Shown here piece by piece: positions 1-33,242 of a DNA stretch of 64,000 nt (positions are counted from its first letter, which is position 1; each line of letters starts with the position of its first letter). Both the position numbers and the translations under genes were made by a program. The stretch covers positions 32,001-96,000 of the IMG/VR virus record IMGVR_UViG_3300036760_000689; one strand, 5' to 3'. The notes under the pieces are model-generated. The model worked only from the letters and a program-made list of their open reading frames with translations, was not told the DNA's origin and ran no database searches. This stretch comes from a virus.

Positions 1-1811
1 GGAGCTATGCCAAGAGCCTGATCATACATCTCCGAAGTTACTCCAGTTTGCTTCATGATGACGAGCTTCCTGATAAAAGGATCGTTCATGTTCAAGGGAG
101 CTGGAATCGTCTTCAAGATAACAAACGGCTTGGCTAAATCCTGGAGGCGGAAACCAGACTGAATCCCGAGCAGGGTCCGGCGAACCCTGTTCATAGCCTT
201 GGTATTGCCGGTGATACAAATCTGGCCATCCAAGCGCATGACCCAGGTTTCATAGAGGGTCGTTGGACACCAAACCGGCTCAGGACTTCCGAGGGGCGAG
301 ATTTCCAAGCCGCCGATAGCAATGTTTGGCCTTCTCCACAGGGTTTGTTCTACAACAACGCGCTCGCGTTCAGGACCCAAACCATACCCTTCCAGCGCAG
401 CTAAGATCTGAAAGGCATCGAGTACAGGGCCGCGTTTCTGCGTAAACACCCAGCAGTTCCCGTGCCGAGTCCCGTCGCCCATGAGCATTGCCTCAAGCAT
501 GGCCTTGCGCGCCGGGGCGCTAAGGGCAGTGGCAAGCCGAGGGAGGTCAGCCTTCCCTTCAATACCGGCTCTAGCAAATAGCGATCGCCAGTATGCAGCG
601 TGAAGACAGAATTGCACCCCCCGATGTGTGGCATAAGTCTTTCCCGTAGGGAAAGTCCTTAAGTTGGCCCCAGAAACAGACTCGCTATAGCTCCCGAGAG
701 GTAGGAGGCTGCGGATGGCATCGGCATTCGGTCCTTCTACCTGCGTAATGTGAGCACGCATAAATGGTTCGTACGGGCCGTAGCGCATGCCATTGTGAAC
801 AGAATGGGTCATCGTCTCTCGCACGCATCCCTCTGTCACAATCCATCCCAGGATCGCAGCATCGACTGGGGAAAGCGGATGATCCCCAGTCGGACCAGGA
901 GCTGCTGTCACTATGCGCTTTAGGGCACGCGAGGCACCAAGCAAGTCTGATGCCTTGACGAGAGCAATCCGACTATTCTTATTCCTAACTCCAAACCGCG
1001 ATCGTACCACCCATGAATGGTTCGGGGTGCAGATGGTCGAGAAACCTCGTCGTTCGAGCCTTACGGTATCAACTCGTTCGAAGACACTAATATTCTCCAA
1101 TGGGGTCCACAAACAGCGATCGCTCCCGCAGTCATAGGCAAGTACGGACTCTCCGAGCGAGAGAGACGAATAACGCTTCCACCCATGCTTGGTCAATATT
1201 TCCGCTCGGATAGGCACGCATTCCGCTAGGGCTACGATATTCTGCCGCGAGCGGACGAGTTCAAGATCCTTGAGTTTCTTTGCCTGCGGAGTCCCGTCAT
1301 TGAGATCCAGTTCATAGGTCTGTTCTGAGTTGCGGATCGTGCCATCGATATCCTCAATTTCAGCACGGGCCGTCGTTTTGGCATGGAGAGGATCATAACG
1401 GGTGGTTCTGGTCTGGGGATCCATGCCCGCTGGTACCAAGCCAGATTGAATTTTCCAATTCGTCAAACCGGCCAAGGCATCAAGACGCTGAAGACCGATT
1501 TTGGTGAGCGCCAGTTTGCCGGTTTCTTTCACATCGTAGACCTCACCTTCGACGTATTCCTTGCCATCATCGGTTTTTTTGGTGGAGATTGAGGCAATCC
1601 GAAGGACAGGGATCCGGCCAGCATATGCTATCAACTGGGGGTCTAGGTTGGTCCTCGCCATGGGAGTCAAGACGTGCGCCTTGTCTCTCAACGAGACGAT
1701 CTGTTGCTGTACCTTCTGGATTTCTTGGAAAATGCTGTTGAGGTTGGTAACCTGGATGGCTACCGTCTCTGGTGGAATTAACGCTAACTGTTGGCTCTTT
1801 TGATCTTGCAT
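1..1811 (-). CDS. Intein-containing protein, 3'-truncated by the window edge; putative ssDNA-annealing/recombination protein
   Basis: Not in the ORF track because it has no stop in the window. Hand translation from ATG 1811 (SD GGAGG) is open to position 1: MQDQKSQQLALIPP...GKLALTKIGLQRLDALAGL...RQNIVALAE-[intein]-TKAMNRVRRTLLGIQSGFRLQDLAKPFVI. The spliced AETKAMNR motif resembles phage annealing-type proteins. The ORF is solid; the function is inference. Confidence 0.75.
   Translation of the reverse strand, partial: MQDQKSQQLALIPPETVAIQVTNLNSIFQEIQKVQQQIVSLRDKAHVLTPMARTNLDPQLIAYAGRIPVLRIASISTKKTDDGKEYVEGEVYDVKETGKLALTKIGLQRLDALAGLTNWKIQSGLVPAGMDPQTRTTRYDPLHAKTTARAEIEDIDGTIRNSEQTYELDLNDGTPQAKKLKDLELVRSRQNIVALAECVPIRAEILTKHGWKRYSSLSLGESVLAYDCGSDRCLWTPLENISVFERVDTVRLERRGFSTICTPNHSWVVRSRFGVRNKNSRIALVKASDLLGASRALKRIVTAAPGPTGDHPLSPVDAAILGWIVTEGCVRETMTHSVHNGMRYGPYEPFMRAHITQVEGPNADAIRSLLPLGSYSESVSGANLRTFPTGKTYATHRGVQFCLHAAYWRSLFARAGIEGKADLPRLATALSAPARKAMLEAMLMGDGTRHGNCWVFTQKRGPVLDAFQILAALEGYGLGPERERVVVEQTLWRRPNIAIGGLEISPLGSPEPVWCPTTLYETWVMRLDGQICITGNTKAMNRVRRTLLGIQSGFRLQDLAKPFVILKTIPAPLNMNDPFIRKLVIMKQTGVTSEMYDQALGIA
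204..1220 (-). mobile_element. Intein (339 aa) with LAGLIDADG homing endonuclease
   Basis: Block A CVPIRAEILT, block B ICTPNHSW, endonuclease motifs ILGWIVTEG and MLEAMLMGDG, block F VWCPTT, C-terminus CITGN followed by Thr+1. Confidence 0.92.
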
Positions 1812-1874: not shown

Positions 1875-1904
1875 TTTATAGCATGTGGAAATTCTTTTTG
1901 TCAA
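1875..1904 (-). promoter_or_regulatory. Sigma70-like promoter for the intein-containing gene
   Basis: TTGACA-N18-TATAAA with extended -10 (TGcTATAAA), immediately downstream of a terminator. Confidence 0.7.
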
Positions 1905-1920: not shown

Positions 1921-1955
1921 ACAACAAAAGGGCTGGAGCGGGGTGCTCCAGCCCT
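1921..1955 (-). terminator. Intrinsic terminator
   Basis: Perfect 11-bp stem AGGGCTGGAGC/GCTCCAGCCCT with a 5-nt loop, running into TTTTGTTGT. Confidence 0.85.
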
Positions 1956-2015
1956 CCTGACAAGTTGAATGCCCTCTGAAAATCATAGGCCGATCAGGTC
2001 AGCAACGGCCAAGCC

Positions 2016-2044
2016 GTTTCAATCCACGCCCGCGCGCGGGCGAC
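2016..2044 (-). CRISPR. Solitary type I-C-like CRISPR repeat unit (single copy, not an array)
   Basis: GTCGCCCGCGCGCGGGCGTGGATTGAAAC has a GTCGC 5' end, a CGCCCG/CGGGCG hairpin and the canonical I-C 3' tail GTGGATTGAAAC. No second copy and no cas genes were seen. Confidence 0.65.
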
Positions 2045-2129
2045 TACTTACGGGTTGTCCCAGAAGAATCATCGTGGAAGCGAATAGAGCCAGCAGAATC
2101 ATCAAAACCGTCACTGCGATTCTGAGCAT
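2019..2129 (-). CDS. 36-aa hydrophobic peptide
   Basis: Strong SD AAAGGAG; MLRIAVTVLMILLALFASTMILLGQPVSSRPRAGVD*. Its stop codon lies inside the CRISPR-like repeat. Confidence 0.55.
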   Translation of the reverse strand: MLRIAVTVLMILLALFASTMILLGQPVSSRPRAGVD

Positions 2130-2197
2130 GCACGTACTCCTTTCGCTTGTTGCGTTTATTTCAATTTACATTGGTATGCAACAGACTGAGATCAATG

Positions 2198-2299
2198 TCA
2201 ACCGCTTTTTTTCAGCAAGATAACGCCCTGGGCGACAAGAAATATTCCGACGACCAAACCGCCGATAAAAGCCAACAGCGCACATAGAACGTATCCCAT
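2198..2299 (-). CDS. 33-aa single-TM peptide downstream of the holin
   Basis: SD GAGGTG; MGYVLCALLAFIGGLVVGIFLVAQGVILLKKSG*. Confidence 0.55.
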   Translation of the reverse strand: MGYVLCALLAFIGGLVVGIFLVAQGVILLKKSG

Positions 2300-2322: not shown

Positions 2323-2796
2323 CTACTTTTTATTCCATTGGAATCCACTTTTGTCCAGTGACCTGAATCCGGCATATCCTAAATAGCCGCTACCAAAAAG
2401 CCAATATGCCTCTGAAGGAATATTCAAGGGGACCAGAGTGGTTGCCCCGCGAATCATCTCGATCACTGGAAGGATGATGAAATTGAAGGTGATCACGGCA
2501 TACATGATGTAAAGAAATGTAGGGCGAGAGCGGGAAACAAACTTGTCGCCGCTTTTTGCTTCTGCCTGAATATTAGCGGAAGCTGCTTCCGTTTCTTTTG
2601 CTTGGAGGTCAGCAAGATGCTGCTCCATTTCGAGTTGCATTTTCTGCAACTCGAAGGCGTTTTGATCCAATGCTTCCTGGATCTTTGCCTTCTCTGTGGG
2701 ACTCACCTTGATACGATCGAGGATCCCAAGGACAAGATCTTTAATCCCGCCTCCGCCGCCAGTGATGGCAGAGATAATACCTCCGAATGCTCCCAT
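2323..2796 (-). CDS. Holin (GTA-type 3TM holin-like)
   Basis: Coiled coil, then SRSRPTFLY and hydrophobic segments ending GYLGYAGFRSLDK; adjacent to the endolysin. Confidence 0.8.
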   Translation of the reverse strand: MGAFGGIISAITGGGGGIKDLVLGILDRIKVSPTEKAKIQEALDQNAFELQKMQLEMEQHLADLQAKETEAASANIQAEAKSGDKFVSRSRPTFLYIMYAVITFNFIILPVIEMIRGATTLVPLNIPSEAYWLFGSGYLGYAGFRSLDKSGFQWNKK

Positions 2797-2817: not shown

Positions 2818-3249
2818 CTATCTTACACCCGTTTTCATTTCCTCCGCAAGTCTTGTCGCCCGGACTCCGACCTGCGTTGCCCAGGTGGAATTTAGCATCT
2901 CTATTGCCGCTATGCTATATTCCTTATTCTGGATCGCCCTTAGCGTGCGTTCGAATTTTAATAGGCCATAAATCCCCAAGTTGAAGCACATGTTGGCCAA
3001 TACCGATTGGCGTACAAGGTCGAGATCATTAAACCAAGGAAGAGCTTGGGTAAGCTGGCCAATGACCTCGGCCACATCGTTGGATAACCGCAGTTCTGCC
3101 TCGGCCAAACGTATAGGGCAAATCTGAATTGCCCAACCGTAACCGATGGTCAGATTCCCTGTAGAATCCATGTAGGTTTTACCCCGAAACCCCTCGTCAA
3201 CTTTCAATGCTTCTTTGGTCAATTGTATAAGGGCAACTATATCCATCAT
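2818..3249 (-). CDS. Endolysin, T4/GH24-type lysozyme
   Basis: DEGFRGKTYMDSTGNLTIGYG (E-x8-D-x5-T), NMCFNLG, MLNSTWATQVGVRATRL. Confidence 0.92.
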   Translation of the reverse strand: MMDIVALIQLTKEALKVDEGFRGKTYMDSTGNLTIGYGWAIQICPIRLAEAELRLSNDVAEVIGQLTQALPWFNDLDLVRQSVLANMCFNLGIYGLLKFERTLRAIQNKEYSIAAIEMLNSTWATQVGVRATRLAEEMKTGVR

Positions 3250-3256
3250 TTGCCTC

Positions 3257-3640
3257 CTATGGTTTTCCTCGCCAGAGTTTTATCAAATCGCTCAAATGCT
3301 CAAGCAGGAGCAAAGCTATAGCACCGGCAACGACCATAATGTAAGGTTTTATTTCCGTCCACCATTTTGTCGAGGTTTGCTTTATGGCATCTGAGGTTGC
3401 AGCCGCCAGTCGGACATCAATCTCCAACTCATTGATTTTAGACTTCGCTGGACAATCGGTTGCATGACTGACCAGCGCTAATTCCGAAGCCCTCAATCCT
3501 TCGAAAAGTTCACCGATATGACCGTTCGCCTTGTCAAAACGTTTGTTAAGTCCTTCGACAGATTCGACAATGCTTTCAACCTTGGTTTCCAACCGGGTCA
3601 CCCCGCCCAACATCGTATCGTGAAATTGCTGAGTGTCCAT
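3257..3640 (-). CDS. Coiled-coil protein with C-terminal TM (lysis module)
   Basis: Heptad-like N-terminus, hydrophobic C-terminal helix, position before the endolysin. Confidence 0.6.
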   Translation of the reverse strand: MDTQQFHDTMLGGVTRLETKVESIVESVEGLNKRFDKANGHIGELFEGLRASELALVSHATDCPAKSKINELEIDVRLAAATSDAIKQTSTKWWTEIKPYIMVVAGAIALLLLEHLSDLIKLWRGKP

Positions 3641-3676
3641 CTTTTCTCCTCTTCGGTATCCCCTGAGTGCCGTCGT

Positions 3677-6600
3677 TTACTCGGGCGGTTCGGGCAATCG
3701 TAATGGCGACTCCCCAGTCGGGGGAGGCATCATCCTTCTAACCTTTGTCGCTTTATATTCCTGAAGCGTCTTTTTGGCAATCGCATTCATCTGAGCCTGT
3801 TTGGTTCTGATGAAGGTGTCGATTTGCGTCTTGGTGTATTTCGGATTCTTTTGCATCGCATCGATCTGTTTCTGGTAGGCCGTCAATATCCTTGCACAGC
3901 CGGCAAACTTAGGTGCAAAAAAAGCATTGGGATAGAGTTGGGAAGCTTCCGCATAGGACATGCCCTTTTTCATCTGGTAATCGCGGACCCGTTTATCTCG
4001 CGTAACTTCCGCGTTGGCAATAAAGAAATCCGCCACCTCAGCTCCCGCACCCCTCTTTGCTTCACGACTTTGGGCTTGTTCTTTGAGTTGCAAACGCTCA
4101 GGTCTTCGTTCCTCCTCTGTATGGCCATATCCAGTACTCTCGTTGATGACCCTTCCGGCCAACCGTCCAACCGTTGGATCTATTTGCGTTAATATTTGGT
4201 AAAAGCTCTTATTGCTTATATCGTAGGTTTGGAAATTGCCAAGACCCAACTGGTTCAACGAGAACAGTACGAGTTTGCCCGCCATGGCCGGTTTGTCTCC
4301 CGCTTCATATACATCGCGCGGAAAAATGGGCATACCGCGATAGGTATCTGGCGGGTTCTGGCCTGCCAACGCTCGACCCACGGTGATCGGAATCTGGATC
4401 CAGGGAGTGGGCGATGGCAATTGCGACACAACATGATTATATATGTTTGTCAGCATTTCCGGATCGTCTTTGGCATATCCATCCATCAGTTCGTTTATGA
4501 TCCCCCAAAGCATCCTGCATCCTTCGTCCAAGGGTACTTGAAAGCTGATCGCTTCCCCTAACCTGTTCAGGCCGAACAGAACGTTGAGATACATCCGCTT
4601 TTTATAACCCGTGATGCCGTCCCAGGCCCACTTGATCTTTTTGCCCCAATAGGGACCAAAGATCTTGACGGCGTAATATCCGAAAATCAAGTTCGCCGCT
4701 ATCAGCACGCTCAGGACTTTCATCGTTCTGTGGAAGAATCCCGATCTGGTTACGGGATCAGCGATAAGATTAATCTCGCTGTGCCATCCCTGGATGAACA
4801 TAGTCGGAAACGCGAGGAGCCGGTTGAATGTCTGTCCCCAACTTCCCTTGCGATACCATGCCGGGGTCCCTGTGTTGCGCCGCATGTTCATGCCAAGTCT
4901 TGGCCCGGTTTCCCCTGCGGCCACCCGGACTTGATGGCCACTAACCTTACCCAAGGTTTCCGCGAACTCTGCGACGTAGGCAAGTCCGCCCAAAACATTC
5001 TTGGCCCCACGGTACATCCTTATCGTAGCGCGCTTATCCAACGTCCCGTTTGGCCTGTAGATTCCTGCGCGCTTCATTGTTAGATTGAAGGCGTCATGCT
5101 CATATTCGGTCTCGGGGGCTTCCAACGTCGGAGCTGATATTTCGTCGTTTCTGATCATCTCACGCAAGAGTGGATCCCCGTGATTCTTCATGTGCCGATA
5201 TACATGAATGAAGGAGCGCCTGTAGGCATCGAGGAGATAAGTAAAATCTCCAGCCCCCCATTCACGCCAGAGCTTCTGAAGCATATTCCCGGGAAGAAGC
5301 TCAAAAGGCAACGCCCTGAAATTTTTCACAAAGTCCCTGACTGGATTGCCAAACGCACCGAAGGACAAGTTGTAAAGAATAATGACCTTCCACCAGAGTT
5401 TGTGAACCAGATTCATCCACTGCGCCCAATCCTGTAGGGCCTCAGCGTTCGGATGATTGATCCCATCGGCCAGGTACTTATCCACCCAATATCCCTGTCG
5501 CCTGCCATCCTCCATCATCTCAACGATGTCAAATCCCTCAACGGCCTTACCATTGGCATCCACGGGGCGTTCCCAAGTTACTGCGATGTCGGTAGGATGC
5601 TGTCGTTTGGCCTTATAGATTTCATCTGGCCAGAATTGTTTCCAATTTTCGATAAATGACCGGCGCGCACCATAGACGACTATCATTTTGATAAGGGCAA
5701 ACCGCATTTTGAGATCAGATAGAATCGGGTTTTCAAAGGCCCCCGTATAGCCGATCTGGGCCTTTACTGTCGGGCTGACGTATTGATCGATATATTTTTC
5801 GGCCACGAATTTGACGTAGTTGTACTTGTCCTCCTCGAACTTTTTACGCGCTCGCTCTGGATAAATCTGGAGATCGAATCCTTTTTCCACGAGTTCCCAG
5901 GTAATGTCCTCATAGGCATGAGCAGCTTGTTCCAGAGCTGCGAATTTTTCGGGACCAATCCGCTCCTGGAATCGGTCCAATGTTTCTGCCGCAAATTCTC
6001 CACCAACAATTTTGGGATTGGCCACATCCGCGCGCCCGGTCGCAGTTCTGTGGAGATACATGTAGAGACCCAAGACGATGTGTGGCCCATAATGCTCCGC
6101 CGTCAGATCCTGGTAGATCGTGCCAGCAATACTGGGCAAGTCCGACGCCTTGAAACCCAAATCCTCGATCGTGATTCCGGCCTTCTCGATGATTTCCTGC
6201 ATTATCTCGCGGTTGACCCTATCGGCGAATTCCCATGTTCTGTTGGCAATGTTGAACGGGAGCGCATCGTATTTGATCTCGGGATTGTCTTTGTCGTCGA
6301 TGGCAGTGGGTTTATACTTCAGCAACCCCTCAATGTGTTTGTCGAGCATCCATAAGCGATAGACGAGTTTGCCCTTGACGCTTCCTATGAATCCCTGGCC
6401 CTTTAGTGGTTCTTTCAACTCCACAGCCGCAGATGATCTTTCCGCATCTACCAACATACCGAGCGTTCTGACCAGCCGATCGTCCAACTTTTCTTCCGTA
6501 GCTCCCGCCATCATTGCCCGGAGCTTGAGGTACTCCGTTTTCACATCTGGCTTGGTATCCATGTGGGCATGGAACTCCCGATAAAACTTTGGCGCATACT

Positions 6601-9600
6601 TGCGCGCCGTGCCTGGGGAATTCAGCAGGGCGGACACAAAATCCGCATATAATTCCTGGGATTGTCGCCGCAACCTTATGTATCCAGGTCTAGCCTTCGT
6701 AAGGTCGTAAGGATGCCAGTATTCGCTGAGGAAGATGAGTTCCTTCCTGAGTTCCTTGGCTTTGGCCATCACCCCCGGCATAGTATTTTTCAGATAGGTG
6801 CTGAGAGTCGTGAGCCGACCTAGGAGATTACCACGCTTGAGCGTTGCGGTCGGCACCCAATCAACAAGGTGACCGATTTCATGAGCGAGTACGCGCGCTA
6901 AAACCTCTCTATTTCCCGGTTCGAATAATTCAGGGCGCAACTCGATATGTTCCTTCATCCGCTCGCCTACGAAGCGGCCGTAGCTTGTTCTCAGTCTCGT
7001 GCTTAATTTGATTGCTTCCTTTACTCCGTGTTGTGATGCGATCTGGATCAGATCATCGGCAAGATTCATCAGTTCCGGAGCTTGGATCCTGCCCCAAGCT
7101 TCAATCTCAAAGATATCGACGCTCCTATTGTCGTATGGAAGGATCCGAAACCGCCTCGTTCCATCGTTAATGATCCAACCTAATGTCCCCTTTGTGATCT
7201 TCGCCGCCGAGGAGAGATCAATATCGCTATTGGCTTTCATGTCATCAGTAATCGAGGTGGGAATGGTCCCGGAGGACATTGCCGTTTTGTCGGCTTGCGT
7301 CACAGCGCTTGTGAAGAGATAGGACGGTCCCAGTTCTTCCTCACGCGTCCATATCGGCATTTCCCTTTTTTTATACTCCGCAATTTCCGGGGGTTCTGGA
7401 AGTGGCGTATAAAGCGGATCCGCCAAGGGGCCGCTGACCAATTGGGGATCGGGATGCCCTTCAAATGCAGGCATATCGGCGACCTCGGGTTGTGCCGCGC
7501 CAGCATCCACAACCTCCTGTGCGACAGGAGTTCTCTTCTTCTTTCTTCTTCTGCCGACATTGATAATGTACGACGAGGCCAAGAAGGATCTCTTGCCTCC
7601 TGCACCATATCTGTTCGCAATTTCTGGACGTGTAGCTTCTAGGTCTTCAACAAGTCGTCCTGCGAGTTTTGCTTCTTCGTAAATGCCGATATAGAGGGTG
7701 GCCTTTTCCCGTTCTGCATGAAGGAGATCCCTGCGTGCGGCGATTGCCTTGCGTTTGTCCTCGGCCTCAGGGTTATAGTCTGGATGTTCCTTCATGAGCT
7801 GGGCAAGGTGCTCCTGGTGGGATTGCATCCTTCTGCGATCCCAATCCGACCCATAACCCTTGGCAATGTCATCCTCGAGTTCCTTGATGCGTTCCTGCCT
7901 ATTTTTGATGTCGTCTTCCATCACCTTCAGGTGGTGGAGAACTCTTTCCTCGACCTGATCTATTGCCTCAAGTTCGCCATCGACCGAATGAACGGCATGT
8001 TTGGCCCGATAGTAATCCAAGGTTGCCTGCGGGATGGCTGCGGCATCGGCCAATTGCCGGAAGTTTCTGCCATCCTCGTCGAAGTCAAGCATTTCATCCG
8101 CGTTCCCTCGATATACCTCTTTGATCCATACATCCTTGCCAGCAATGGTATCGTAGAGCTTGGCATCCGACGTTCCCCTTACCAAATAACGATGGATGCG
8201 AATGCTTTCGTTCCTATTCCCTTGCCGTAAGCCGCGCCCGTCCGCTTGTTCAAGTGCAGAACCTGTCCACGGGACATCGAAATGATGGACCTGAGTAGTA
8301 TCAGTTTGAAGGTTCATGCCCTCACCCATGGATTGCCTCGAACCGATCAGGAATCGGATTTTTCCCTCCGCGTTGGCCTGCTGAATTTTGAACTTGGCAT
8401 TGGCTCCGCTGTTAATCTGCCCATTGACGATGGCAATCTGACTTTCGGGAACACCAGAATCCATCAACTTCTGTTTGAAATGTTTGTGGATATTGACCAA
8501 CTCCACAAAATGCTTGGAATTCTGTTCCTTTTGCACACTATCTTCGTCGTCACCCTCTTCAATCTTTCCCTCTTCGGTATCTACCGGCTCCTCCAGATAA
8601 CCGCCACGATAAAGATCACAGAAGATAAGTTGAGTGTTCTCTCCGGTATCACCAGCGAGCACTTCTTTAACCACAGCCTCTAACTTCGAACCGGGACCCC
8701 CAAAGGAAGCAGCATACTTCCTGGGATCGAAGATCGCGGGATCTGCCGCTAGTTTTCGCGCGAGAGTCAGGACAGAGAGGTGATTGATACCTTCGGCAGC
8801 CGCCTGCTGCAGGTGATCGTTGACGTATTCTTGCAACCATGCGATGTAGCCAGCGCACTCCGTCACTGCGTCAGTTGGATCCAAAACATGGTCAATATAG
8901 ATTCCTTCGGGACGGGGGATCTTGAGATCTTCAATCGTTCGGAAATCAACATAGCGCCGGAAGATGGCTCTCAACTCGGTCAGATTCTTATATCCTGCCC
9001 AGACCGTCTTAGCCTTAGGCACTCCGGTTGCGGTCTGGACCTCACGCGTTTCAATCCGCCCGAATTGCCCCATGAAATCGCCAGCGTTCAGGATTCCCCG
9101 ACTCGTCCACTCTTCCGGTGCCACATAACCCATCATGGCGTAGATCTCAGAAGGATGATTCGGGGTCGGTGTGGCAGTGAGCATCCAAACATTCTGACCT
9201 TTTCGACCGCCCCTGCGCTCATGGATGTAGCGGGTCTTATATTGCATGTCAGCGGCACGTTGCGACCACTTTCCTGCACGCACGTAATCCGACATGTCAC
9301 CGTAATCCTTTGGAGTATTTTTGAATCGATGAGCCTCATCCACGATGATGGCGTCGGAACCAAGATCCTCGAAAAAGATTGTGTTAGTTCTTTTCATCTG
9401 CTGCAATTTCGCGAGTTTCTCTTCGTATTTCAGGATTTGATTCTGAATTTGGGTCTCGGTACGCTTATCCTTTTTTACCTGGACGGCCCGGAGACGATCT
9501 TCGAGTTTGCGGATATCTTCTTGAATGTATTCCTCAGACTTGCGTAGCGGGATCTCCTTCATACCTTCATGAGTTATCAAGATGAAATCGGCATCGGTTA

Positions 9601-12600
9601 CCGCTGCCCGTTGCAGCATCTTGTAGCGATTGGTGGCGTCCAAGCCAGAGAGGTCAATAATGGTGGCGTCTGGTAGCGCCTGATTGATTTCATATGCCCA
9701 ATTTTTCACCACCGCAGCCGGGACAGTAAGAATTGGCTTGCGCACCTTGTTGCGTTGTTTCAGGTGTTCTACCAGTAGGATGGCGGTCAAGGTTTTCCCG
9801 CCTCCTACACCATATGCAACGATTCCGCTACCGATGTGTGCTGCGCGCCCCACGCCTTGCCACTGATGCGCTTGAATCTTCAAGGGACTTCCCTTGAACA
9901 TCGTGCTCAGACCGTTAATGTCGAGTTGTTTATCGGAATAAAACCGTTCTCGAAAGGAACGATAACCTCGGTTATATTTCGGGATCACCCTATCAAACAG
10001 GCTGATATGCTGAAGACTCCAATCACGGAACATTTGAGCAAGAACGGCGTATGCCTTCTCGCCGTCTTCGTCGTAGATGGTTTTGGTTATTATCTCGCCC
10101 TTCGGATTTACCTCCCCGGTCGGCACTTCCTTCCTCACCCGGATATGCCGCATATAATTTTCGATTTGCTGGAAGTCTAGCCTGAAATCTTTTTCAATCG
10201 GCCTCGTTTTTTCCAGGCCAATCTCATCCTGATATTTTTCCGTTGACGGGATTCGTATATTCAGTTTCGCAGATGCTCTATCCGCCTCTAATGCCCAAAC
10301 CATCCTTCCGCGATCGCCATCCCAGACCTTTTCGGCACGGATGCGCCCGGGAGTGAGTTCCGCAAGCCAGTGCTGAATGACCCGATCCTCGATATATGCG
10401 GAGAAAGGATCGCTTCGGCGGATTATTTCATCGGCCTGCGCCTGTTCTGGAAGCACCGCCTTGAGCCTTATGAGCTGATCCGAAAGCGCGGTGAGGACGT
10501 TTGCCGCGCGGTTCCTTACTTCTGGCGTTTTTTGTCCCTCTGGTATCTGGTCGAGGCGGTTCTGAATATCGCCTGCCATCTGGGCAGTCTGATCGATCTT
10601 AGGCCAAATGGAACCATACAAATACTCCTCGTTGACCTCCATGATCGGCTTACCATCCTGATCCAGAGCGGCAATGCTGAAGTCTGGATGGCCCACGAGA
10701 TCTTCGGGCTTCATGGTTCCCTGATATCTCTGGGCAACCTCAGACCAGTTCATCTCTCCGGTGGTTTCGTAGACAAATTTTGCTGTGTCAACGAGATCTT
10801 CCTTGTTGTAATCCCGCACCTCTGGGGGTGGAACGTAGATGGAATTATTGGTAAAGATATCGCCGGGACTGCCATCAACATTGGTCAACGCTGCTAGTTT
10901 CCATATCCTGGGATCGGCAAACGGGAAAGGAGCACTCTGCGGTCCTCCACCGAGATATCTCCATAGGGTTTTATCTTTGGTTGGATCGCCGCTGGGATTG
11001 TCCTTTGGGGTGGCGTAAGTTCTTTTGTAGGCATCCAAGAGTGGTCTTACTTGCGCGCGGAGTTTGTCCGCCCCAGCGATATCATTGTCTCTGAGAGCGG
11101 TGAAAAGGTCATCCGCGAATTCGACTAGCCTCAATCCTTTGCGGACTCTCTCATGGGTTTTGCCCTCACGAGGCATTTCCGTGGCATGGAGGATAAAGCC
11201 GTCCTTGCTGGCATATCCGAACTTCTCTTTCTCTTCATCCCAGACAACCGTTCCGATTTTCATCCCCTGTGGGCGGTTGCCGAGGATTTCCCGATCTGCG
11301 GCCTCTTCCGTTGCGATCTTGGCGGCCTGCGTCTCCTTTGGGATATAGCGAATATCATCAGTCAGAGCATGCGCAATAGCTTGCAGGTATCTATCCTGAT
11401 CGGGAATCTTTTTCCCCCCTGGTCCTTCCTTCTGGAAAGGCCGCACACCCATCATCGTTGGATGCTGGACATTGTATCCAGCCTCGAGTGTCCCCCATAC
11501 CTTTTCGGGATGCTTCATATAGTAGGTCGAGACTTTCGCTCCAATGCCGCTTTCCTCTGGATCCAGAGCGTAGATGAACTCGTCCTGATACATGTTGTCC
11601 GTCCACGATTCCATTTCCTCTGGAGTTCTTTTCCTGAGAAAAATGATGTCGGTCGAACCTTCGTACTGGGTATTTTTGCTGAACTCACCGCCCGGAGTCC
11701 GGTAGGCACCAAGAAATTCAGCCCTCTTATTTATCTCCTTGCGAGGTTTCTCATTGCCCGTTTTGTCCATCGTCCCGATGCCGGTAATGAACATGACAAC
11801 GCCATTGGGCCGTGTCATGTCGAGAGATTTCACAAAGAAAAAATCGTGCATTTGGTGGATATCTTCGTATTCTTTTGCTTCATCTCTATAGCGGCAAGCG
11901 CCACGCGCCGCATTGAAGGGAACATTCGAAGAGAAGACATCAATATCCTTCCTTGGCGGATATTCCTCGAAATGAAGGTCCGAGATTTTTACATCGGGGA
12001 ACAAGAGCCGAGATACCTGGACGGCAAGCGGATCGATTTCCGTAGCAAAGATCTTGGAGTCCGCAGGGGCGAACCCCGAACTGCAATTACCAATACCATG
12101 GGCTGGATCCATGATGGTAAGATTGTCCATGGGGAAACCCATAGCACGGAGTTTATCCCACAAGAACACGGCCATCCGATACGAGGTGTAATGCTCGTAC
12201 AAGGTACCCCGTTCTTTGACCATGGCCGACAGGCCCCCGCTCCCAGTGTATTGACGCAGAAGGTTCTTCTCTTCATCTGTGAGTGGATCCCCTGGTTGCT
12301 TCGACTCCACGAGTTGGCGAACCTTCTCGTTAATCTCTATGCGCTGTCCGCGCGTAAGAACTACAGGAGGTCTCCCTCTGAATGTATATCGGGCGTCGCG
12401 TTGCGCTGACTCAAGATCTGCTGCCGGAGTTGTTCCTTTAACTCCTGGCTCGGTGGAAAGTTCAGCAGTAGGTCGTGGCTCAGGTCGCTCAGCAGGTTCG
12501 CCACCCCGCACCGCTCTACCACCTCCTTCGGCAAGCGGTCGATAATCTCCCGCGCCGCCTCGTCCGCCGCGTAAATCCTCGACATCTCCGTAACGTGCTC

Positions 12601-15600
12601 CATAAATGCCTCCGACCCCGCCTTCATAATCCTTGTTGCCTGTGACCGCCTCCCAGACATCTGGGAATAACGGTTCGAGATCTTCGCCCAGACCCTCGGC
12701 GATATCCTCCATATCGCGGTACAAGGTCGCATGCCATACGGCCTTATCAGCGACTCCGGTATTGTAATAGTCATCGCCTAGAGCTGTCATGGCGTCGAAG
12801 ATATCCGGGTCTGTCCGCAATTGCTCTCTTGTCGGCCCCTTGATCTCGATGCCCTCGACAGCCATCTCGGCGACCTCCGCCGCCCGCTTGCTGATTTTCT
12901 TGCGAATGATATCCCGCGCGCGCTTTGCCTTTTCGGATTGACTCTGAGGCACTGCCTCTGGTTCTGGAGGAAGTAATGGTCCGCCGCTGAGATTTGAGAG
13001 GGGATGCTCCGCCCCGAAGGTCGGCGGAGGCGCTTCGGGAGGAATCAGTTCCGTCTTATAACCTGCCCTCGTCGGGATAATCCTCGCCTTCGTCCATTGG
13101 ACTTCTGGAGGACCTTCGAGCGGAGGAGGCTCGAAAGTCACTTTTCCACCTAATGGTGTGATGTCCTTCAGACTGTATCCAGTCGCTTCTGCCAGCTCGT
13201 TTGCGATTTCCCACGCCTGTATGCCCTTTCTCATCTGACCCACGGAGGAAAGATATTTGGATGCATCGGAATAAAAGCGTGCAAGATCCAGGGCCTCATC
13301 CGGGTTGACGCTGAGAATCCCAACGGTCTGACTATTATCGACAGTGGCGGTTTTGAATTTGCCGGGATTTCTTCTCAGAAGATCTTCTCCGGTGTCCTTT
13401 TGACCTGTCGTTCGCAGTTTGATGCGGATCTGGGGCGCTTCTGGTTCAATCTCGGGAGGCGGTGACGGCAAAACCTCGCCACTGGCTGCACGTTTGAGAT
13501 CCCGCGCGTTATCGGCAAACTTCGCCAAAGAAGGGCTGCCGCTTTCGGGAATACCTTTCAGGTCTCTGATTTGAATGATCCTAATCCTGATCTGGGCAAT
13601 GCTCCAGTCCGCCTTACCGCCCAGGGTTTGCTTGATCTCATCGGCCAACCGTGGAAGCGATTTGCCATCGAGCAAGCCTTCGATGATAGGTTCCGCAATG
13701 TCGAGATTGATGGCCTGCTGGAGAAAGGATTCGGCCATTCTCTGTTTCGCAGGTGTAAGGACCGTATTGGGCAGATCGGCTGCATAACTGAAGAGTTGGA
13801 TGGGAGCTTTGCCTTCGGGCGCAAGCGGTGGTTCCAACGTTGGACTTATTTCCTCGCCCTCACGCGGACGGGCTAAGCCAATATATAGGTTGCCATTTTC
13901 ATCTTCTACAAACTTCGATAAATCCTCTCCGGGCAACGGTCGGGGACCATCATAACCGCCAAGAACCAAGTGTCCTGCACGTGCCAGTCGAAACACAGCA
14001 GCATCGAACACCCCTCGTGTCATGGTCGGAAACTGCTTTCGGACTTCATCTACCGCGACAAAGTTCCCCAGTCTTGTCTCTGTCTCCCATTCCGCATCCG
14101 CCATGCCCTTAAGGAAAGCATTTTCCTCTCCGGGGACAGGTTCCAGAGGCGGAATCTCTGCCTCGGCAGCCGCAGGCAACACTTCCTCAGGCGGTTCTGC
14201 CAACGTCATAGATACCAGTCTTCGTTCCAGCTTCCTGTCGGGGAGTCGCGGTGGGCGACCCGACTCGGAAATTCGCATGACATCCTTGGCCCAGCGTCCC
14301 ACAGATCTGCCATCGGGCATCCTTATCGTGAGACGTTGCCTACCCTGGAAATCAGCGATATTGGTGATCCTACCGATACCAAGATCGACATCGGCATCTG
14401 TGAAGATGTCACTCTCAGTGAAGATATTGTTTTTAGGTTCATTCTTGGCCAGAATGCTCTGTGCTTGTTCTGGTCGAAGGCGGCCGATGATATTGTCGCT
14501 ATAATCCAATCCGCGCAACTTATCTTCCTGGTCTCGAGTGATCACAAATGCCGCCAAAGGTTGCGGCGTAGGTTCTTGAGCTTTCTCGATTTCTTCGGCT
14601 GCAACAGCAAATTTGGCGCGGGTGTCCTTCAACTCATCGGCGATCTTTTCTCCCGGCTTGACCGCGAACGTCGATCCAGTTTGCGTGTCAGTATAAAGGA
14701 AGAATACGGTATTGCCTTGTAGATCTTGCTGTGGGCCGTTATAGACGACGCCTTCTGGAAGTTCTTCCATCTCATGAGGCGCTGCCACCTTGCCGATATC
14801 CTCGGGTCTAGGCAATGGTTCTGGCTGAGGAGCCACTGGAATCGGCGGTTTAATTGGTAACTCCGTTGGCGGAATTTCGGTCACTGTCGGAAGCATCCCT
14901 AGCGGTGCCTCGGGCGCTGCCGCCGCGACCTCGGGTTCAACTGTTTTGCCGGAAAATTCATTGGCCCTGCGCGCGGCATCTGTCAGATCTTCTGGGGTAA
15001 TCCCAGCGACAATCTGTTTGCGTTCTTGACCGCTCATATCGGCAAAACCTACGGTCATTTCGGAAGGTGTCATGGCGCGCCCATATTTGGCCTGAAACGC
15101 GCGCGCGATTGACGGAATGTGGAATCCGGCGATCTGGAGAAATGTTATGAAACCATCTTCACCAGCAGCAGAAAGTCGTGTTGCGAGATTTCCGGGGGTC
15201 TCCACCGCTGTAATGCCAGCCGCCGCCAGACCATAGGATACCGCGCTCTGGAGAGCCGTTCCGATTGAGGTGCGATGCGTTTCGTTCGCGTAATCCTCGA
15301 TAAACTTCTTGAACTGTTCATATTCTGGATAACGCGCGCGGGCCATATCACGAATGGTGTCCACAACCGAAAAGCGAAAGGCATTGGGATCCACCATGCC
15401 CCTATTAACGGCATCGCCGACCCACGCACGCGCTACCGCCTGCGCCGCGAGCAAATCCTCTTTTGTGGCCGTAGTAGGATCAAGGAGCGTGCCAGACCAT
15501 CCCGCCCTGGATGCCGCCAACAACTCCGCTTGTATCTTGATGGTTTCGGCTTCCTCTTTGTTAGCGACCGTCGCCATCCCGCGAAGTAATTGCGATATCT

Positions 15601-17266
15601 TTGGATCCGTGATATCCATTTTGAAGGTTTGGGCAAGATTCCTGATTCCCGGTGCATATTTCAGAACTTCGCCACCGACGCCGAAGGCAACTGCCCTTGC
15701 GATAGCATTGGGGACACTTTCCCCTCTTCCGAGCGCCGTAATAGTTCCGGCTGTAGCCAAAGCCAAACTATTCTCTGCCCCGGCGATTCCTCGAACGGCC
15801 CAGGATAATTTGTTGGGATTTTCCAGTCCCCATAGGAGTGTCTTTTCGAAGTTGGGATTTTTTAGGGCCTGTTGGGCCAAAACCTTGACGGCTAACTTTG
15901 CCGATGTCTGATCAACTTCCTTAATGGCTTTCACGGCTTCGATGGCTTTCTTGGCCGCTGGCAATACACGGAGCCGTTCAAGCCAATTGGCCACAACAGG
16001 AATCTGCCCGATCTTGCCGGATATCCCGATCATTTCGGCCATGGTACCGCCGCCAAGAAATGCCATACTGCCAAGGAATCCTGGAACGCCAGCAACCATT
16101 CGTACCAGTTCCTCGCCCTTATATTCTTCGGGTTGGAATTTGCCGATGTTGTAAGCCCAAGCATTGCCAAAACTTTCGATCGCAGAGACGTAGATTTTTT
16201 CCGCCAGGGAAGGTTGGCCATAACCTTCGGGGACCTCCCCATAGCGCATCGCCGCCGCTTGCTCTGGGGGTAACGCGCTGATGAAGGGGCCTTTGGCAGT
16301 CTTCATCCGATCCATCATGGCGCGAAGGTCTTTATCTACAGGAGCGCCAGCAACTTTGATAGCGCCGATCTCTTGACCCAGGGTAATCAGATCACCCAGA
16401 GCCTTTATCTTCGGGCCGGCCTCACCAATGACCGATCTGATTTTGGTGACTCTCGAGTTATATTCGTTCACATCCTCTCTGTTGGTTGTATCAGGTCCAC
16501 CCGGCCACCTATCTTTGATTTCGGCGGAGAGAAGATCGATATCCTGTCTATGGACTCCAATTTCCCTTGAGAGTCGGTCGATATCTCCGCCGACTTCCCT
16601 TTGTTCGGGCGGTTTCCCAACCTTTGTACTCGGCACTGGCATGGGTGGCTGTTTATTCAGCCAATCCTGAAATGATTCCCGTTTCTCGAACTGAGGGACC
16701 GCAGGATATTTTAGCCGTTCGGAAATCTCAGGAGGCGGAGCAAGTGGGGCTGAAACAGCAGGTGCGACTTGGGGAGTTGGTTCAGGAGGCGGAGCGAATG
16801 TGGCTGGAATGCCTGGACCAGAAGGAACAACGGCACGCATTCTCTGAGTCGGGGAAACAAATGCTCCTGTAATCAGGTCTTCCGTCTGTCTGACTTTCTG
16901 CTTTGTCCAGTTCAACAGGTCATCTAACCACCAAGTTTCCTTCGTCTCAGGTGTGTTCTTGAAATAGTCGTTCCACGTCCCCTTATCGACATTCAGTTCA
17001 TTATCCTGGCCTTCTTTGGGGGCATTGGCGAACTCTGGCGACACCTTGTTCAGAATATATCTGCGGGTTTCCATGTCTAACTGATGGAACCAATCCTGAG
17101 TTAGCACATCCTTGGGTTTGATCGAGGCCCAATCTGGTTGAGACACCTTGGCCTTTGGAGGCGCGACTGGCGTCTTCGGAGGGACAGGTGGTTTCGGTTC
17201 TTGATCCTGCGATCCTTCATTATCAGGAGGAAGAGGCAGAGGTTGGTCGAACAGATTTGCGGCCAT
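3677..17266 (-). CDS. Giant DarB-like polyvalent virion protein: N6-adenine MTase + SNF2 helicase + zincin metallopeptidase + large C-terminal domain
   Basis: 4529 aa. MTase motifs MDPAHGIGN and SNVPF; helicase GVGGGKT, IVDEAH, LTATP, QADGRGLRQGN; peptidase LAHEIGH...ELYADF. Last gene of the ejection cluster. Confidence 0.88.
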   Translation of the reverse strand: MAANLFDQPLPLPPDNEGSQDQEPKPPVPPKTPVAPPKAKVSQPDWASIKPKDVLTQDWFHQLDMETRRYILNKVSPEFANAPKEGQDNELNVDKGTWNDYFKNTPETKETWWLDDLLNWTKQKVRQTEDLITGAFVSPTQRMRAVVPSGPGIPATFAPPPEPTPQVAPAVSAPLAPPPEISERLKYPAVPQFEKRESFQDWLNKQPPMPVPSTKVGKPPEQREVGGDIDRLSREIGVHRQDIDLLSAEIKDRWPGGPDTTNREDVNEYNSRVTKIRSVIGEAGPKIKALGDLITLGQEIGAIKVAGAPVDKDLRAMMDRMKTAKGPFISALPPEQAAAMRYGEVPEGYGQPSLAEKIYVSAIESFGNAWAYNIGKFQPEEYKGEELVRMVAGVPGFLGSMAFLGGGTMAEMIGISGKIGQIPVVANWLERLRVLPAAKKAIEAVKAIKEVDQTSAKLAVKVLAQQALKNPNFEKTLLWGLENPNKLSWAVRGIAGAENSLALATAGTITALGRGESVPNAIARAVAFGVGGEVLKYAPGIRNLAQTFKMDITDPKISQLLRGMATVANKEEAETIKIQAELLAASRAGWSGTLLDPTTATKEDLLAAQAVARAWVGDAVNRGMVDPNAFRFSVVDTIRDMARARYPEYEQFKKFIEDYANETHRTSIGTALQSAVSYGLAAAGITAVETPGNLATRLSAAGEDGFITFLQIAGFHIPSIARAFQAKYGRAMTPSEMTVGFADMSGQERKQIVAGITPEDLTDAARRANEFSGKTVEPEVAAAAPEAPLGMLPTVTEIPPTELPIKPPIPVAPQPEPLPRPEDIGKVAAPHEMEELPEGVVYNGPQQDLQGNTVFFLYTDTQTGSTFAVKPGEKIADELKDTRAKFAVAAEEIEKAQEPTPQPLAAFVITRDQEDKLRGLDYSDNIIGRLRPEQAQSILAKNEPKNNIFTESDIFTDADVDLGIGRITNIADFQGRQRLTIRMPDGRSVGRWAKDVMRISESGRPPRLPDRKLERRLVSMTLAEPPEEVLPAAAEAEIPPLEPVPGEENAFLKGMADAEWETETRLGNFVAVDEVRKQFPTMTRGVFDAAVFRLARAGHLVLGGYDGPRPLPGEDLSKFVEDENGNLYIGLARPREGEEISPTLEPPLAPEGKAPIQLFSYAADLPNTVLTPAKQRMAESFLQQAINLDIAEPIIEGLLDGKSLPRLADEIKQTLGGKADWSIAQIRIRIIQIRDLKGIPESGSPSLAKFADNARDLKRAASGEVLPSPPPEIEPEAPQIRIKLRTTGQKDTGEDLLRRNPGKFKTATVDNSQTVGILSVNPDEALDLARFYSDASKYLSSVGQMRKGIQAWEIANELAEATGYSLKDITPLGGKVTFEPPPLEGPPEVQWTKARIIPTRAGYKTELIPPEAPPPTFGAEHPLSNLSGGPLLPPEPEAVPQSQSEKAKRARDIIRKKISKRAAEVAEMAVEGIEIKGPTREQLRTDPDIFDAMTALGDDYYNTGVADKAVWHATLYRDMEDIAEGLGEDLEPLFPDVWEAVTGNKDYEGGVGGIYGARYGDVEDLRGGRGGAGDYRPLAEGGGRAVRGGEPAERPEPRPTAELSTEPGVKGTTPAADLESAQRDARYTFRGRPPVVLTRGQRIEINEKVRQLVESKQPGDPLTDEEKNLLRQYTGSGGLSAMVKERGTLYEHYTSYRMAVFLWDKLRAMGFPMDNLTIMDPAHGIGNCSSGFAPADSKIFATEIDPLAVQVSRLLFPDVKISDLHFEEYPPRKDIDVFSSNVPFNAARGACRYRDEAKEYEDIHQMHDFFFVKSLDMTRPNGVVMFITGIGTMDKTGNEKPRKEINKRAEFLGAYRTPGGEFSKNTQYEGSTDIIFLRKRTPEEMESWTDNMYQDEFIYALDPEESGIGAKVSTYYMKHPEKVWGTLEAGYNVQHPTMMGVRPFQKEGPGGKKIPDQDRYLQAIAHALTDDIRYIPKETQAAKIATEEAADREILGNRPQGMKIGTVVWDEEKEKFGYASKDGFILHATEMPREGKTHERVRKGLRLVEFADDLFTALRDNDIAGADKLRAQVRPLLDAYKRTYATPKDNPSGDPTKDKTLWRYLGGGPQSAPFPFADPRIWKLAALTNVDGSPGDIFTNNSIYVPPPEVRDYNKEDLVDTAKFVYETTGEMNWSEVAQRYQGTMKPEDLVGHPDFSIAALDQDGKPIMEVNEEYLYGSIWPKIDQTAQMAGDIQNRLDQIPEGQKTPEVRNRAANVLTALSDQLIRLKAVLPEQAQADEIIRRSDPFSAYIEDRVIQHWLAELTPGRIRAEKVWDGDRGRMVWALEADRASAKLNIRIPSTEKYQDEIGLEKTRPIEKDFRLDFQQIENYMRHIRVRKEVPTGEVNPKGEIITKTIYDEDGEKAYAVLAQMFRDWSLQHISLFDRVIPKYNRGYRSFRERFYSDKQLDINGLSTMFKGSPLKIQAHQWQGVGRAAHIGSGIVAYGVGGGKTLTAILLVEHLKQRNKVRKPILTVPAAVVKNWAYEINQALPDATIIDLSGLDATNRYKMLQRAAVTDADFILITHEGMKEIPLRKSEEYIQEDIRKLEDRLRAVQVKKDKRTETQIQNQILKYEEKLAKLQQMKRTNTIFFEDLGSDAIIVDEAHRFKNTPKDYGDMSDYVRAGKWSQRAADMQYKTRYIHERRGGRKGQNVWMLTATPTPNHPSEIYAMMGYVAPEEWTSRGILNAGDFMGQFGRIETREVQTATGVPKAKTVWAGYKNLTELRAIFRRYVDFRTIEDLKIPRPEGIYIDHVLDPTDAVTECAGYIAWLQEYVNDHLQQAAAEGINHLSVLTLARKLAADPAIFDPRKYAASFGGPGSKLEAVVKEVLAGDTGENTQLIFCDLYRGGYLEEPVDTEEGKIEEGDDEDSVQKEQNSKHFVELVNIHKHFKQKLMDSGVPESQIAIVNGQINSGANAKFKIQQANAEGKIRFLIGSRQSMGEGMNLQTDTTQVHHFDVPWTGSALEQADGRGLRQGNRNESIRIHRYLVRGTSDAKLYDTIAGKDVWIKEVYRGNADEMLDFDEDGRNFRQLADAAAIPQATLDYYRAKHAVHSVDGELEAIDQVEERVLHHLKVMEDDIKNRQERIKELEDDIAKGYGSDWDRRRMQSHQEHLAQLMKEHPDYNPEAEDKRKAIAARRDLLHAEREKATLYIGIYEEAKLAGRLVEDLEATRPEIANRYGAGGKRSFLASSYIINVGRRRKKKRTPVAQEVVDAGAAQPEVADMPAFEGHPDPQLVSGPLADPLYTPLPEPPEIAEYKKREMPIWTREEELGPSYLFTSAVTQADKTAMSSGTIPTSITDDMKANSDIDLSSAAKITKGTLGWIINDGTRRFRILPYDNRSVDIFEIEAWGRIQAPELMNLADDLIQIASQHGVKEAIKLSTRLRTSYGRFVGERMKEHIELRPELFEPGNREVLARVLAHEIGHLVDWVPTATLKRGNLLGRLTTLSTYLKNTMPGVMAKAKELRKELIFLSEYWHPYDLTKARPGYIRLRRQSQELYADFVSALLNSPGTARKYAPKFYREFHAHMDTKPDVKTEYLKLRAMMAGATEEKLDDRLVRTLGMLVDAERSSAAVELKEPLKGQGFIGSVKGKLVYRLWMLDKHIEGLLKYKPTAIDDKDNPEIKYDALPFNIANRTWEFADRVNREIMQEIIEKAGITIEDLGFKASDLPSIAGTIYQDLTAEHYGPHIVLGLYMYLHRTATGRADVANPKIVGGEFAAETLDRFQERIGPEKFAALEQAAHAYEDITWELVEKGFDLQIYPERARKKFEEDKYNYVKFVAEKYIDQYVSPTVKAQIGYTGAFENPILSDLKMRFALIKMIVVYGARRSFIENWKQFWPDEIYKAKRQHPTDIAVTWERPVDANGKAVEGFDIVEMMEDGRRQGYWVDKYLADGINHPNAEALQDWAQWMNLVHKLWWKVIILYNLSFGAFGNPVRDFVKNFRALPFELLPGNMLQKLWREWGAGDFTYLLDAYRRSFIHVYRHMKNHGDPLLREMIRNDEISAPTLEAPETEYEHDAFNLTMKRAGIYRPNGTLDKRATIRMYRGAKNVLGGLAYVAEFAETLGKVSGHQVRVAAGETGPRLGMNMRRNTGTPAWYRKGSWGQTFNRLLAFPTMFIQGWHSEINLIADPVTRSGFFHRTMKVLSVLIAANLIFGYYAVKIFGPYWGKKIKWAWDGITGYKKRMYLNVLFGLNRLGEAISFQVPLDEGCRMLWGIINELMDGYAKDDPEMLTNIYNHVVSQLPSPTPWIQIPITVGRALAGQNPPDTYRGMPIFPRDVYEAGDKPAMAGKLVLFSLNQLGLGNFQTYDISNKSFYQILTQIDPTVGRLAGRVINESTGYGHTEEERRPERLQLKEQAQSREAKRGAGAEVADFFIANAEVTRDKRVRDYQMKKGMSYAEASQLYPNAFFAPKFAGCARILTAYQKQIDAMQKNPKYTKTQIDTFIRTKQAQMNAIAKKTLQEYKATKVRRMMPPPTGESPLRLPEPPE

Positions 17267-31162: not shown

Positions 31163-31740
31163 ATGTTAGTCTCTTTGGGCCGCCGCCATCGTTCGGCGAT
31201 CATCTGGCGACAGTGTTCAATGTTTTCCGGCCTTTTGGATCGTATTGACTGTTCTCGCTTCCAGTCCTCGGTGTGTTTTGGATGTGATTTCCCAAGATTG
31301 GACATCCGTATCTCTTCGATTACTTTCGATGAATGCTTATATCCTTTCCTCATTCTCGCTGCTTTCGATGCGATGCTACTTCTCAGATCTGGAGACATAC
31401 GACATTTTGCCGCTCGTAATTTGGCGCGATGATCATCGCTGAATCGATGTCCAGTCGTCCCCTCGCCTCCGTTGGTTGCGTTTACGAGATTGACCCCAGA
31501 TTGTCTGAAGCCCAGGATCCATGCCTGTTCGGAATCGATGCGGCACCTATCGGCAATGACATCAAGAATTTCAATGAGCGGTTTCAGACCCCGCCGATAC
31601 ACCGATTGGATCCAGTTACACCGATGATTGTCTCTCTTGTCATTCCGATGTTCCCTCAGACGTTTGGCAACCGATCCGGTCACACCGACATAGCGCGCCT
31701 CTCTTGTAATAGGATCACGAAGAAGATAGACCGTTTGCAT
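31159..31740 (-). CDS. GIY-YIG homing endonuclease with NUMOD3 repeats
   Basis: VYLL...RYVGVT...RLREH, E..WI, LVNATNGGEG, followed by GHRFSDDHRAKL and GYKHSSKVIEEI. Confidence 0.88.
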   Translation of the reverse strand: MQTVYLLRDPITREARYVGVTGSVAKRLREHRNDKRDNHRCNWIQSVYRRGLKPLIEILDVIADRCRIDSEQAWILGFRQSGVNLVNATNGGEGTTGHRFSDDHRAKLRAAKCRMSPDLRSSIASKAARMRKGYKHSSKVIEEIRMSNLGKSHPKHTEDWKREQSIRSKRPENIEHCRQMIAERWRRPKETNI

Positions 31741-31741
31741 T

Positions 31742-33210: not shown

Positions 33211-33242
33211 CTTCGCCCCTCAACCAGATTGCCATAGCTTTC

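Follow-up and report, generated by a model that had tools for sequence, protein, structure and literature searches.

Introduction

Viral solitary repeat units (SRUs) act as RNA anti-CRISPRs, termed Racrs, and 2,103 viral SRUs have been catalogued so far, with inhibition of CRISPR observed for every SRU candidate that was tested (9/9; PMC10651486). RacrIC1, a type I-C SRU, is located 11 nt downstream of a small gene and is co-transcribed with that gene (PMC10651486). The type I-C processing protein Cas5c recognises mainly its cut site and the U-G-G following it, occupies the handle end of Cascade, and cleaves such that a 21-nt hairpin part lies upstream of the cut and an 11-nt handle downstream of it (PMC8524198). 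Some viruses also encode crlRNAs, among them two-spacer arrays directed at I-C loci of Neisseria (bioRxiv 10.1101/2024.10.29.618823).

Here we analysed a stretch of 64,000 nucleotides (the window), corresponding to bases 32001-96000 of the 110,116-bp IMG/VR virus record IMGVR_UViG_3300036760_000689, which has a completeness of 100% (CheckV) and a G+C content of 50.6%. Unless stated otherwise, coordinates are those of the window. A first-pass annotation had pointed to a solitary type I-C-like 29-mer at 2044-2016 on the minus strand, and had proposed either an RNA anti-CRISPR or a guide RNA. In our analysis the element is best placed within the SRU/Racr class, whereas the proposed guide RNA was not supported, as neither a second repeat nor, in the sequences searched, a protospacer was found. 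In the part of the supplement of PMC10651486 that was accessible, other type I-C SRUs from IMG/VR are listed and the sequence of the present phage is absent.

Results

Genomic position of the repeat

The repeat is found on the minus strand, like all flanking phage genes, and belongs to the following set of features, given from upstream to downstream:

2818..3249, minus strand: endolysin (phage lysozyme), which opens the lysis cassette and is located upstream of the repeat (Pfam Phage_lysozyme, E = 3e-9; PHROG endolysin)
2323..2796, minus strand: holin of the GTA_holin_3TM family (Pfam PF11351, E = 7.8e-17; PHROG 3427 holin, E = 2.2e-24; Atlas neighbours all 3TM holins)
2198..2299, minus strand: 33-aa single-helix membrane ORF with no family match, its stop codon overlapping the TTGACA hexamer
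2196..2201, minus strand: TTGACA, a -35-like hexamer whose best -10 matches at 3/6 positions, at 19-nt spacing
2019..2129, minus strand: 36-aa ORF consisting of a hydrophobic helix and a repeat-encoded polar tail (no Pfam/PHROG match)
2016..2047, minus strand: solitary 32-nt type I-C CRISPR repeat, identical to array repeats adjoining I-C cas operons and unique in the phage
1960..2015, minus strand: structured segment of ~56-58 nt after the repeat, the 'spacer-like segment' (fold z = -3.9; nothing similar found)
1921..1959, minus strand: intrinsic terminator with a 10-bp G+C core (1954-1945 / 1939-1930), up to 15 bp in all, a 5-nt loop and a U-run (from the fold)
1875..1904, minus strand: strong sigma-70-like promoter (TTGACA, 18 nt, TATAAA) of the next unit, the 707-aa intein-bearing gene with its ATG at 1811

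Genes for tail proteins, a 4529-aa polyvalent protein and lysis proteins are located upstream of the repeat, while the genes downstream of the terminator encode an intein-bearing protein, an HNH endonuclease, SbcD and SbcC. The boundary between a late and a DNA-metabolism module at the repeat, described earlier as a late/early boundary, is therefore real. The 4529-aa ORF (3677-17266, minus strand), positioned directly upstream of the lysis cassette, contains SNF2/helicase and SprT-like domains and resembles a giant polyvalent protein, possibly virion-delivered. The 707-aa protein (3-1811, minus strand; full gene at genome positions 31688-33811) carries an intein with a LAGLIDADG-type endonuclease at roughly residues 196-537, and the intein alone is what its database homologues have in common with it. 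No phage relatives were found by DNA search or by searches with the 707-aa protein and the C-terminus of the 4529-aa protein, and a search with the holin gave a single 35% match, located in an unrelated high-GC contig. No acr-like or aca-like gene was recognised near the repeat in the Pfam/PHROG annotation.

Identity to native type I-C repeats

In a scan of one genome per prokaryotic species, exact matches to the 29-mer were identified in two MAGs. One of these, a Terriglobia MAG (L003), carries the sequence as the 32-nt repeat of a true array with Csd1, Cas7, Cas4 and Cas1 directly upstream. The four bases preceding the 29-mer in the phage also match this native repeat, extending the phage unit to 32 nt (2047-2016) with 32/32 identity. 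A metagenome scan located the 29-mer on 19 contigs, most of which hold arrays of 8-27 repeats separated by 33-36-nt spacers, and in locus L034 a complete operon of cas3-cas5d-csd1-cas7-cas4-cas1-cas2 is followed by an array with the exact repeat in the same orientation. The likeness to type I-C repeats that had been put forward for the 29-mer thus turned out to be stronger than described, since the phage carries the exact 32-nt repeat of native arrays that adjoin I-C cas operons in the Terriglobia MAG (L003) and in about 15 metagenome contigs (among them L034). Judged by sequence comparison, the match to real I-C repeats is far beyond chance. The orientation of the native arrays relative to their own cas operons also revealed that the phage repeat is written in the crRNA sense. 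The Rfam model CRISPR-DR9 matched the repeat with 30.5 bits (E = 1.3e-4), under its gathering score because the repeat loop is shorter than that of the model.

Two further observations were made in these genomes. The array of the Terriglobia MAG (3522-4198, minus strand) alternates between 31- and 32-nt versions of the repeat, distinguished by the length of a G-run, and the accompanying ORFs for cas1 and cas4 seem to be truncated; both features probably reflect homopolymer error in a long-read MAG and not biology. A Planctomycetota MAG (L002, 3302-3330, plus strand; the same locus as L028) contains one solitary exact copy of the I-C repeat core in otherwise ordinary chromosomal surroundings, with a DUF1844 gene whose ATG follows after 10 nt, and the assembled genome showed no array at up to 3 mismatches and no Csd1. 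This copy may represent a host-side orphan repeat or a crRNA-like regulator.

The phage repeat is composed of a 21-nt 5' part (2047-2027), including a 6-bp stem (2042-2037 / 2032-2027) with a 4-nt loop, and an 11-nt 3' part (2026-2016) corresponding to the future 5' handle. Read directly from 2047-2016, the 11-nt part begins with U-G-G and ends with AUUGAAAC, which are cut-site determinants of Cas5c according to PMC8524198, and the repeat hairpin is present in the computed fold. Being an exact native repeat, the phage unit possesses every determinant reported for Cas5c (the stem, the cut after nucleotide 21, U22-G23-G24 and the 11-nt 3' part; PMC8524198), and by analogy with that work Cas5c is predicted to cut between 2027 and 2026, after repeat nucleotide 21.

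Solitude of the repeat

No second copy of the 29-mer (2044-2016, minus strand) was found in the window at up to 3 mismatches, with 0 expected by chance, and its 12-nt 3' end occurs only once in the 110,116-bp record. Likewise, the 32-mer has no further copy elsewhere in the phage at up to 10 substitutions, and local alignment scores within 150 nt on either side remained inside the shuffle distribution, giving no indication of a degenerate or partial second repeat. No cas genes were detected in the whole phage, neither with HMMs for Cas5d and Cas7 nor by tblastn with the seven I-C Cas proteins of L034, and the initial remark that cas genes and a second repeat are lacking consequently applies to the entire phage. 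The sequence is thus a genuine solitary type I-C repeat in transcribed orientation, with a terminator behind it, in a phage without cas genes. A transposon-end remnant was considered and ruled out, the sequence being an exact CRISPR repeat without an inverted partner.

In agreement with the definition of SRUs, the phage repeat is full-length and of high identity, solitary within 100 bp, and carried by a mobile element without cas association. SRUs are in addition typically intergenic and placed just downstream of a promoter, whereas the present repeat overlaps the 36-aa ORF and has only a -35-like hexamer 150 nt upstream. Since RacrIC1 is itself operonic, this placement departs from a typical but not obligatory trait of SRUs.

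A 32-bp identity might also serve as a handle by which the phage recombines with, integrates into or disrupts host CRISPR arrays, a role that was proposed for SRUs in earlier literature (cited in PMC10651486) and that would fit with the SbcCD-like nucleases encoded just downstream. However, a 32-bp match is on the short side for homologous recombination, the repeat has no integrase next to it, and 0 array-phage junctions were present among the 19 metagenome contigs with the same repeat, leaving recombination as the least probable of the explanations we considered.

Overlap with a small open reading frame

The small ORF reported between the TTGACA hexamer and the repeat does exist (2129-2019, 36 aa), but it does not end before the repeat; it runs into it. 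Its ATG is preceded at 7 nt by a Shine-Dalgarno sequence rated as good (AAGGAG, 2142-2137), the repeat (2047-2016) supplies the last nine sense codons and the stop codon, and the stop codon itself (TGA, 2021-2019) falls within the 11-nt handle. As read from the sequence, a cut at 2027/2026 would take the stop codon (2021-2019) off the ORF.

This arrangement raises the question of whether the repeat is a cis element responding to Cas5c, where cleavage would deprive the 36-aa membrane ORF of its stop codon and of the two sense codons before it, yielding a non-stop mRNA and making the output of the peptide dependent on host I-C processing. The stop codon is indeed only 5 nt past the predicted cut, and the ORF combines its good Shine-Dalgarno sequence with a position in the lysis cassette. 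Nevertheless, this explanation is purely inferential, and other SRUs of the same subfamily do not overlap an upstream ORF. We consider it very improbable, and a regulatory meaning of the stop-codon removal is unlikely.

Transcription signals and terminator

TTGACA is present at 2201-2196 as reported, but the case for an own promoter is weak: no acceptable -10 follows at 16-19 nt spacing, the best one matching at only 3/6 positions, and the promoter scan reported nothing on the strand of the repeat. As the TTGACA lacks a usable -10, read-through from the late/lysis operon is more likely than transcription from an own promoter, and the repeat is most simply understood as the final element of a late/lysis transcription unit ending at the terminator. 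The presence of this terminator was confirmed, although its stem differs from the 11 bp first assigned, having a 10-bp G+C-rich core that can be extended to 15 bp and is followed by a U-run. In the 110-kb genome, only four TTGAC[AT] sites are followed at 16-19 nt by a -10 that matches in 5/6 or more positions, one of these being the promoter of the following unit (1904-1875), and the phage probably relies mostly on other promoter types.

The segment downstream of the repeat

The segment after the repeat had been described as spacer-like and ~60 nt long. Its length was approximately correct (~58 nt from the handle to the terminator stem), but its spacer character was not supported, as it is structured and longer than the 33-36-nt spacers in native arrays of the same repeat. 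A 6-bp hairpin (2018-2013 / 2009-2004) straddles the border between handle and body, and an imperfect hairpin comes next. Rfam gave no family at gathering score in the window; a match to the ar35 sRNA (26 bits, E = 0.013 on 1.2 kb) was rejected, as it reflects generic hairpins plus terminator and is not significant at window scale.

Such a segment could in principle make the transcript a single-guide, crRNA-like RNA, in which the repeat provides the 5' handle and the following sequence either directs host Cascade at a competitor or represses a host cas or toxin promoter by the mechanism of Cracr/crlRNAs. An authentic 5' handle would arise, Cas5c binds the handle side of the cut (PMC8524198), and viral crlRNAs against I-C loci are known (bioRxiv 10.1101/2024.10.29.618823). 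On the other hand, a Cracr has repeat-like sequence on both sides of the spacer-like segment, and no second or degenerate repeat is present here within 150 nt; similarly, a viral mini-CRISPR array is made up of at least two repeats, with a spacer that corresponds to another mobile element, neither of which was found for the phage locus. The structured body of ~58 nt is also at odds with native spacers of 33-36 nt.

Searches for a target were equally negative. The 65 nt downstream of the repeat matched the phage itself over 13 nt at best, and the segment gave only matches with E >= 2 in phage and plasmid collections and 0 matches in IMG/VR and metagenomes when type-I-aware patterns, with every sixth base left free, were used. 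No match was found between the flanks of the repeat and the spacers (n=183), leaders or cas loci of arrays with the same repeat. A TTC followed by seed matched over 6 nt at best in the ten contigs holding same-repeat arrays, several of which have adjacent I-C cas genes, and no such match of at least 7 nt was present in the phage either. In the two MAGs, TTC-plus-10-nt seed sites (7 or more) were about as frequent as in the control and none extended beyond the seed. The search for a protospacer with a 5' TTC PAM, which the earlier annotation had suggested, therefore returned neither a protospacer nor a PAM-plus-seed match anywhere searched. Guidance by the downstream segment is thus unsupported by the scans of these sequences, and we find a single-guide RNA improbable.

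Solitary copies in other viruses

Four other IMG/VR contigs (L018, L019, L020 and L021) each contain a single copy of a 20-nt core of the repeat. In L018 (1922-1953, plus strand) and L020, which carry the same element, a 32-nt variant of the I-C repeat abuts the ATG of a 724-aa ORF; a promoter-like TTGACC is found upstream of this element, with the SRU as 5' leader of the gene. In L019 (~7002-7059, plus strand), a repeat variant is inserted between the genes for the terminase large subunit and the portal protein, inside a late operon, with an identical 13-bp sequence on either side of it; this duplication keeps both the terminase stop codon and the portal ribosome-binding site. With its likeness to a target-site duplication, the 13-bp duplication hints that SRUs may be inserted by a discrete mechanism. 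In L021 (~255-286 nt from the start of the minus strand), only the 3' half of the repeat is present, with 3' stem arm and handle, and the unit is accordingly a truncated SRU. Based on these occurrences, repeats of this subfamily appear repeatedly as solitary copies in unrelated viruses, late operons included.

Whether the repeat is functional at all has to be weighed against recent neutral capture, which we regard as a serious rival although an unlikely one. The repeat would then be a host-array fragment, or would have arisen incidentally from Cas1-Cas2 activity or recombination; taken up only recently behind the lysis genes, it would do nothing but supply the tail and stop codon of a small ORF. 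Perfect identity fits with recent capture, the repeat is partly coding and has neither an own promoter nor an acr neighbour, no phage relatives were found that would speak for conservation, and the L019 SRU with its 13-bp direct duplication shows that such units arrive by discrete insertion events. However, the insert comprises exactly one whole repeat, and its flanks match 0/183 spacers and no leaders of same-repeat arrays, while sense orientation and a dedicated terminator are what a functional SRU needs. The activity of all SRUs tested (9/9; PMC10651486) and the recurrence of similar solitary copies in unrelated viruses argue in the same direction.

Link to a host

That the host possesses a type I-C system, as had been suggested, can reasonably be inferred. 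None of the 183 distinct spacers from same-repeat arrays corresponded to the phage, for which the best match of 14 nt is at chance level, and the same spacers gave matches of 14-16 nt only in the other SRU-bearing viral contigs. Depletion of TTC/GAA was not seen in the phage, the observed/expected ratio being 1.00.

Discussion

Taken together, we favour the explanation that the phage repeat is a viral SRU mimicking the host type I-C repeat and likely functions as an RNA anti-CRISPR of the Racr kind, to which we assign a probability of roughly 0.55. This reading is supported by the 32/32 identity to repeats of I-C arrays, the solitude of the unit and the absence of cas genes, by an orientation matching both native arrays and flanking genes, the strong terminator and the Cas5c determinants, and by the precedent of PMC10651486 together with near-identical I-C SRUs occurring singly in four other IMG/VR contigs.

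The repeat would be transcribed in the crRNA sense as the 3'-terminal portion of the late/lysis operon, perhaps with a contribution from a weak own promoter, and the transcript would end at 1959-1921. Host Cas5c (Cas5d) would recognise the hairpin base and the U-G-G directly after it, cut between 2027 and 2026, and be retained on the downstream nucleotides. The downstream product of ~100 nt would consist of an authentic 11-nt 5' handle, a structured non-targeting body of ~58 nt and the terminator hairpin, and is proposed to occupy Cas5c, Cas8c and Cas7 in competition with host crRNAs; the product upstream of the cut, ending in the repeat hairpin, may likewise bind Cas proteins. With Cascade subunits held in targetless complexes, interference against the replicating phage would be weakened.

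Several observations count against the Racr reading. There is no convincing own promoter, and co-transcription with late lysis genes is not an obvious time for blocking CRISPR; the unit overlaps a small ORF, and no acr- or aca-like neighbour was seen. Late expression and the absence of acr neighbours are atypical. Moreover, 0/183 spacers match the phage, the TTC PAM is undepleted, no phage relatives with a conserved copy of the element were found, and perfect identity is also expected from a very recent neutral acquisition.

A variant of the type I-C Racr with a second output may be envisaged, where the handle-bearing downstream RNA nucleates over-long or dead-end Cascade, and the same cut strips the stop codon from the 36-aa ORF, so that host I-C activity alters the lysis programme. 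In this variant, retention of Cas5c on the handle side of its cut would make the downstream handle-bearing RNA the decoy. We hold this extended version to be improbable.

If the repeat is active as a Racr, it represents an environmental example of RNA-based anti-CRISPR activity against type I-C, probably from soil, peat or groundwater, which sits in a large and otherwise unrelated phage and carries a repeat identical to arrays in Terriglobia-like genomes. The repeat also offers a clue to the host of an orphan 110-kb phage. The concept has been published before (SRUs in 2019, Racrs in 2023 and Cracrs in 2024-26), and the present finding extends known biology and does not change it.

Comparison with known systems

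Viral Cracr/crlRNAs (bioRxiv 10.1101/2024.10.29.618823) and host CreA/CreR resemble the present unit as far as a repeat-derived phage RNA using host Cas proteins is concerned, but Cracr/crlRNAs have a repeat-spacer-repeat structure and pair with a cas or toxin promoter over at least 9 PAM-proximal bases, while the phage unit has no second repeat and no such match was found in the sequences scanned. Virus-borne mini-CRISPR arrays, which take part in inter-viral conflicts (cited in PMC10651486), similarly place a CRISPR repeat on a virus without cas genes; in contrast, they have at least two repeats and spacers matching rival viruses, neither of which was found in the phage.

The closest known relative of the phage unit is RacrIC1 from a Bifidobacterium pseudocatenulatum prophage (PMC10651486). 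Both are solitary I-C repeats in phages without cas genes, both are located at the 3' end of a small upstream gene with which they are probably co-transcribed, and the phage unit would be a Cas5c substrate as well. They differ in that RacrIC1 follows an AcrIC5 homologue by 11 nt, whereas the phage unit, known from its sequence, overlaps a 36-aa membrane ORF in a lysis cassette with no recognisable acr. The host lineage of RacrIC1 also appears to differ from that of the phage.

RacrIF1 of type I-F (PMC10651486) shares with the phage unit the mimicry of a host repeat by a solitary copy and the competition with crRNAs for Cas subunits that we propose here. In type I-F, however, the hairpin is retained by Cas6f, so that it is the upstream cleavage product, which lacks a 5' handle, that is active. 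Given the behaviour of Cas5c described in PMC8524198, we infer that the downstream handle-bearing product is more likely to be the decoy in type I-C, unlike in RacrIF1. The phage unit also provides a natural test case for repeat mimicry when Cas5c stays on the 5'-handle side of the cut and not on the hairpin.
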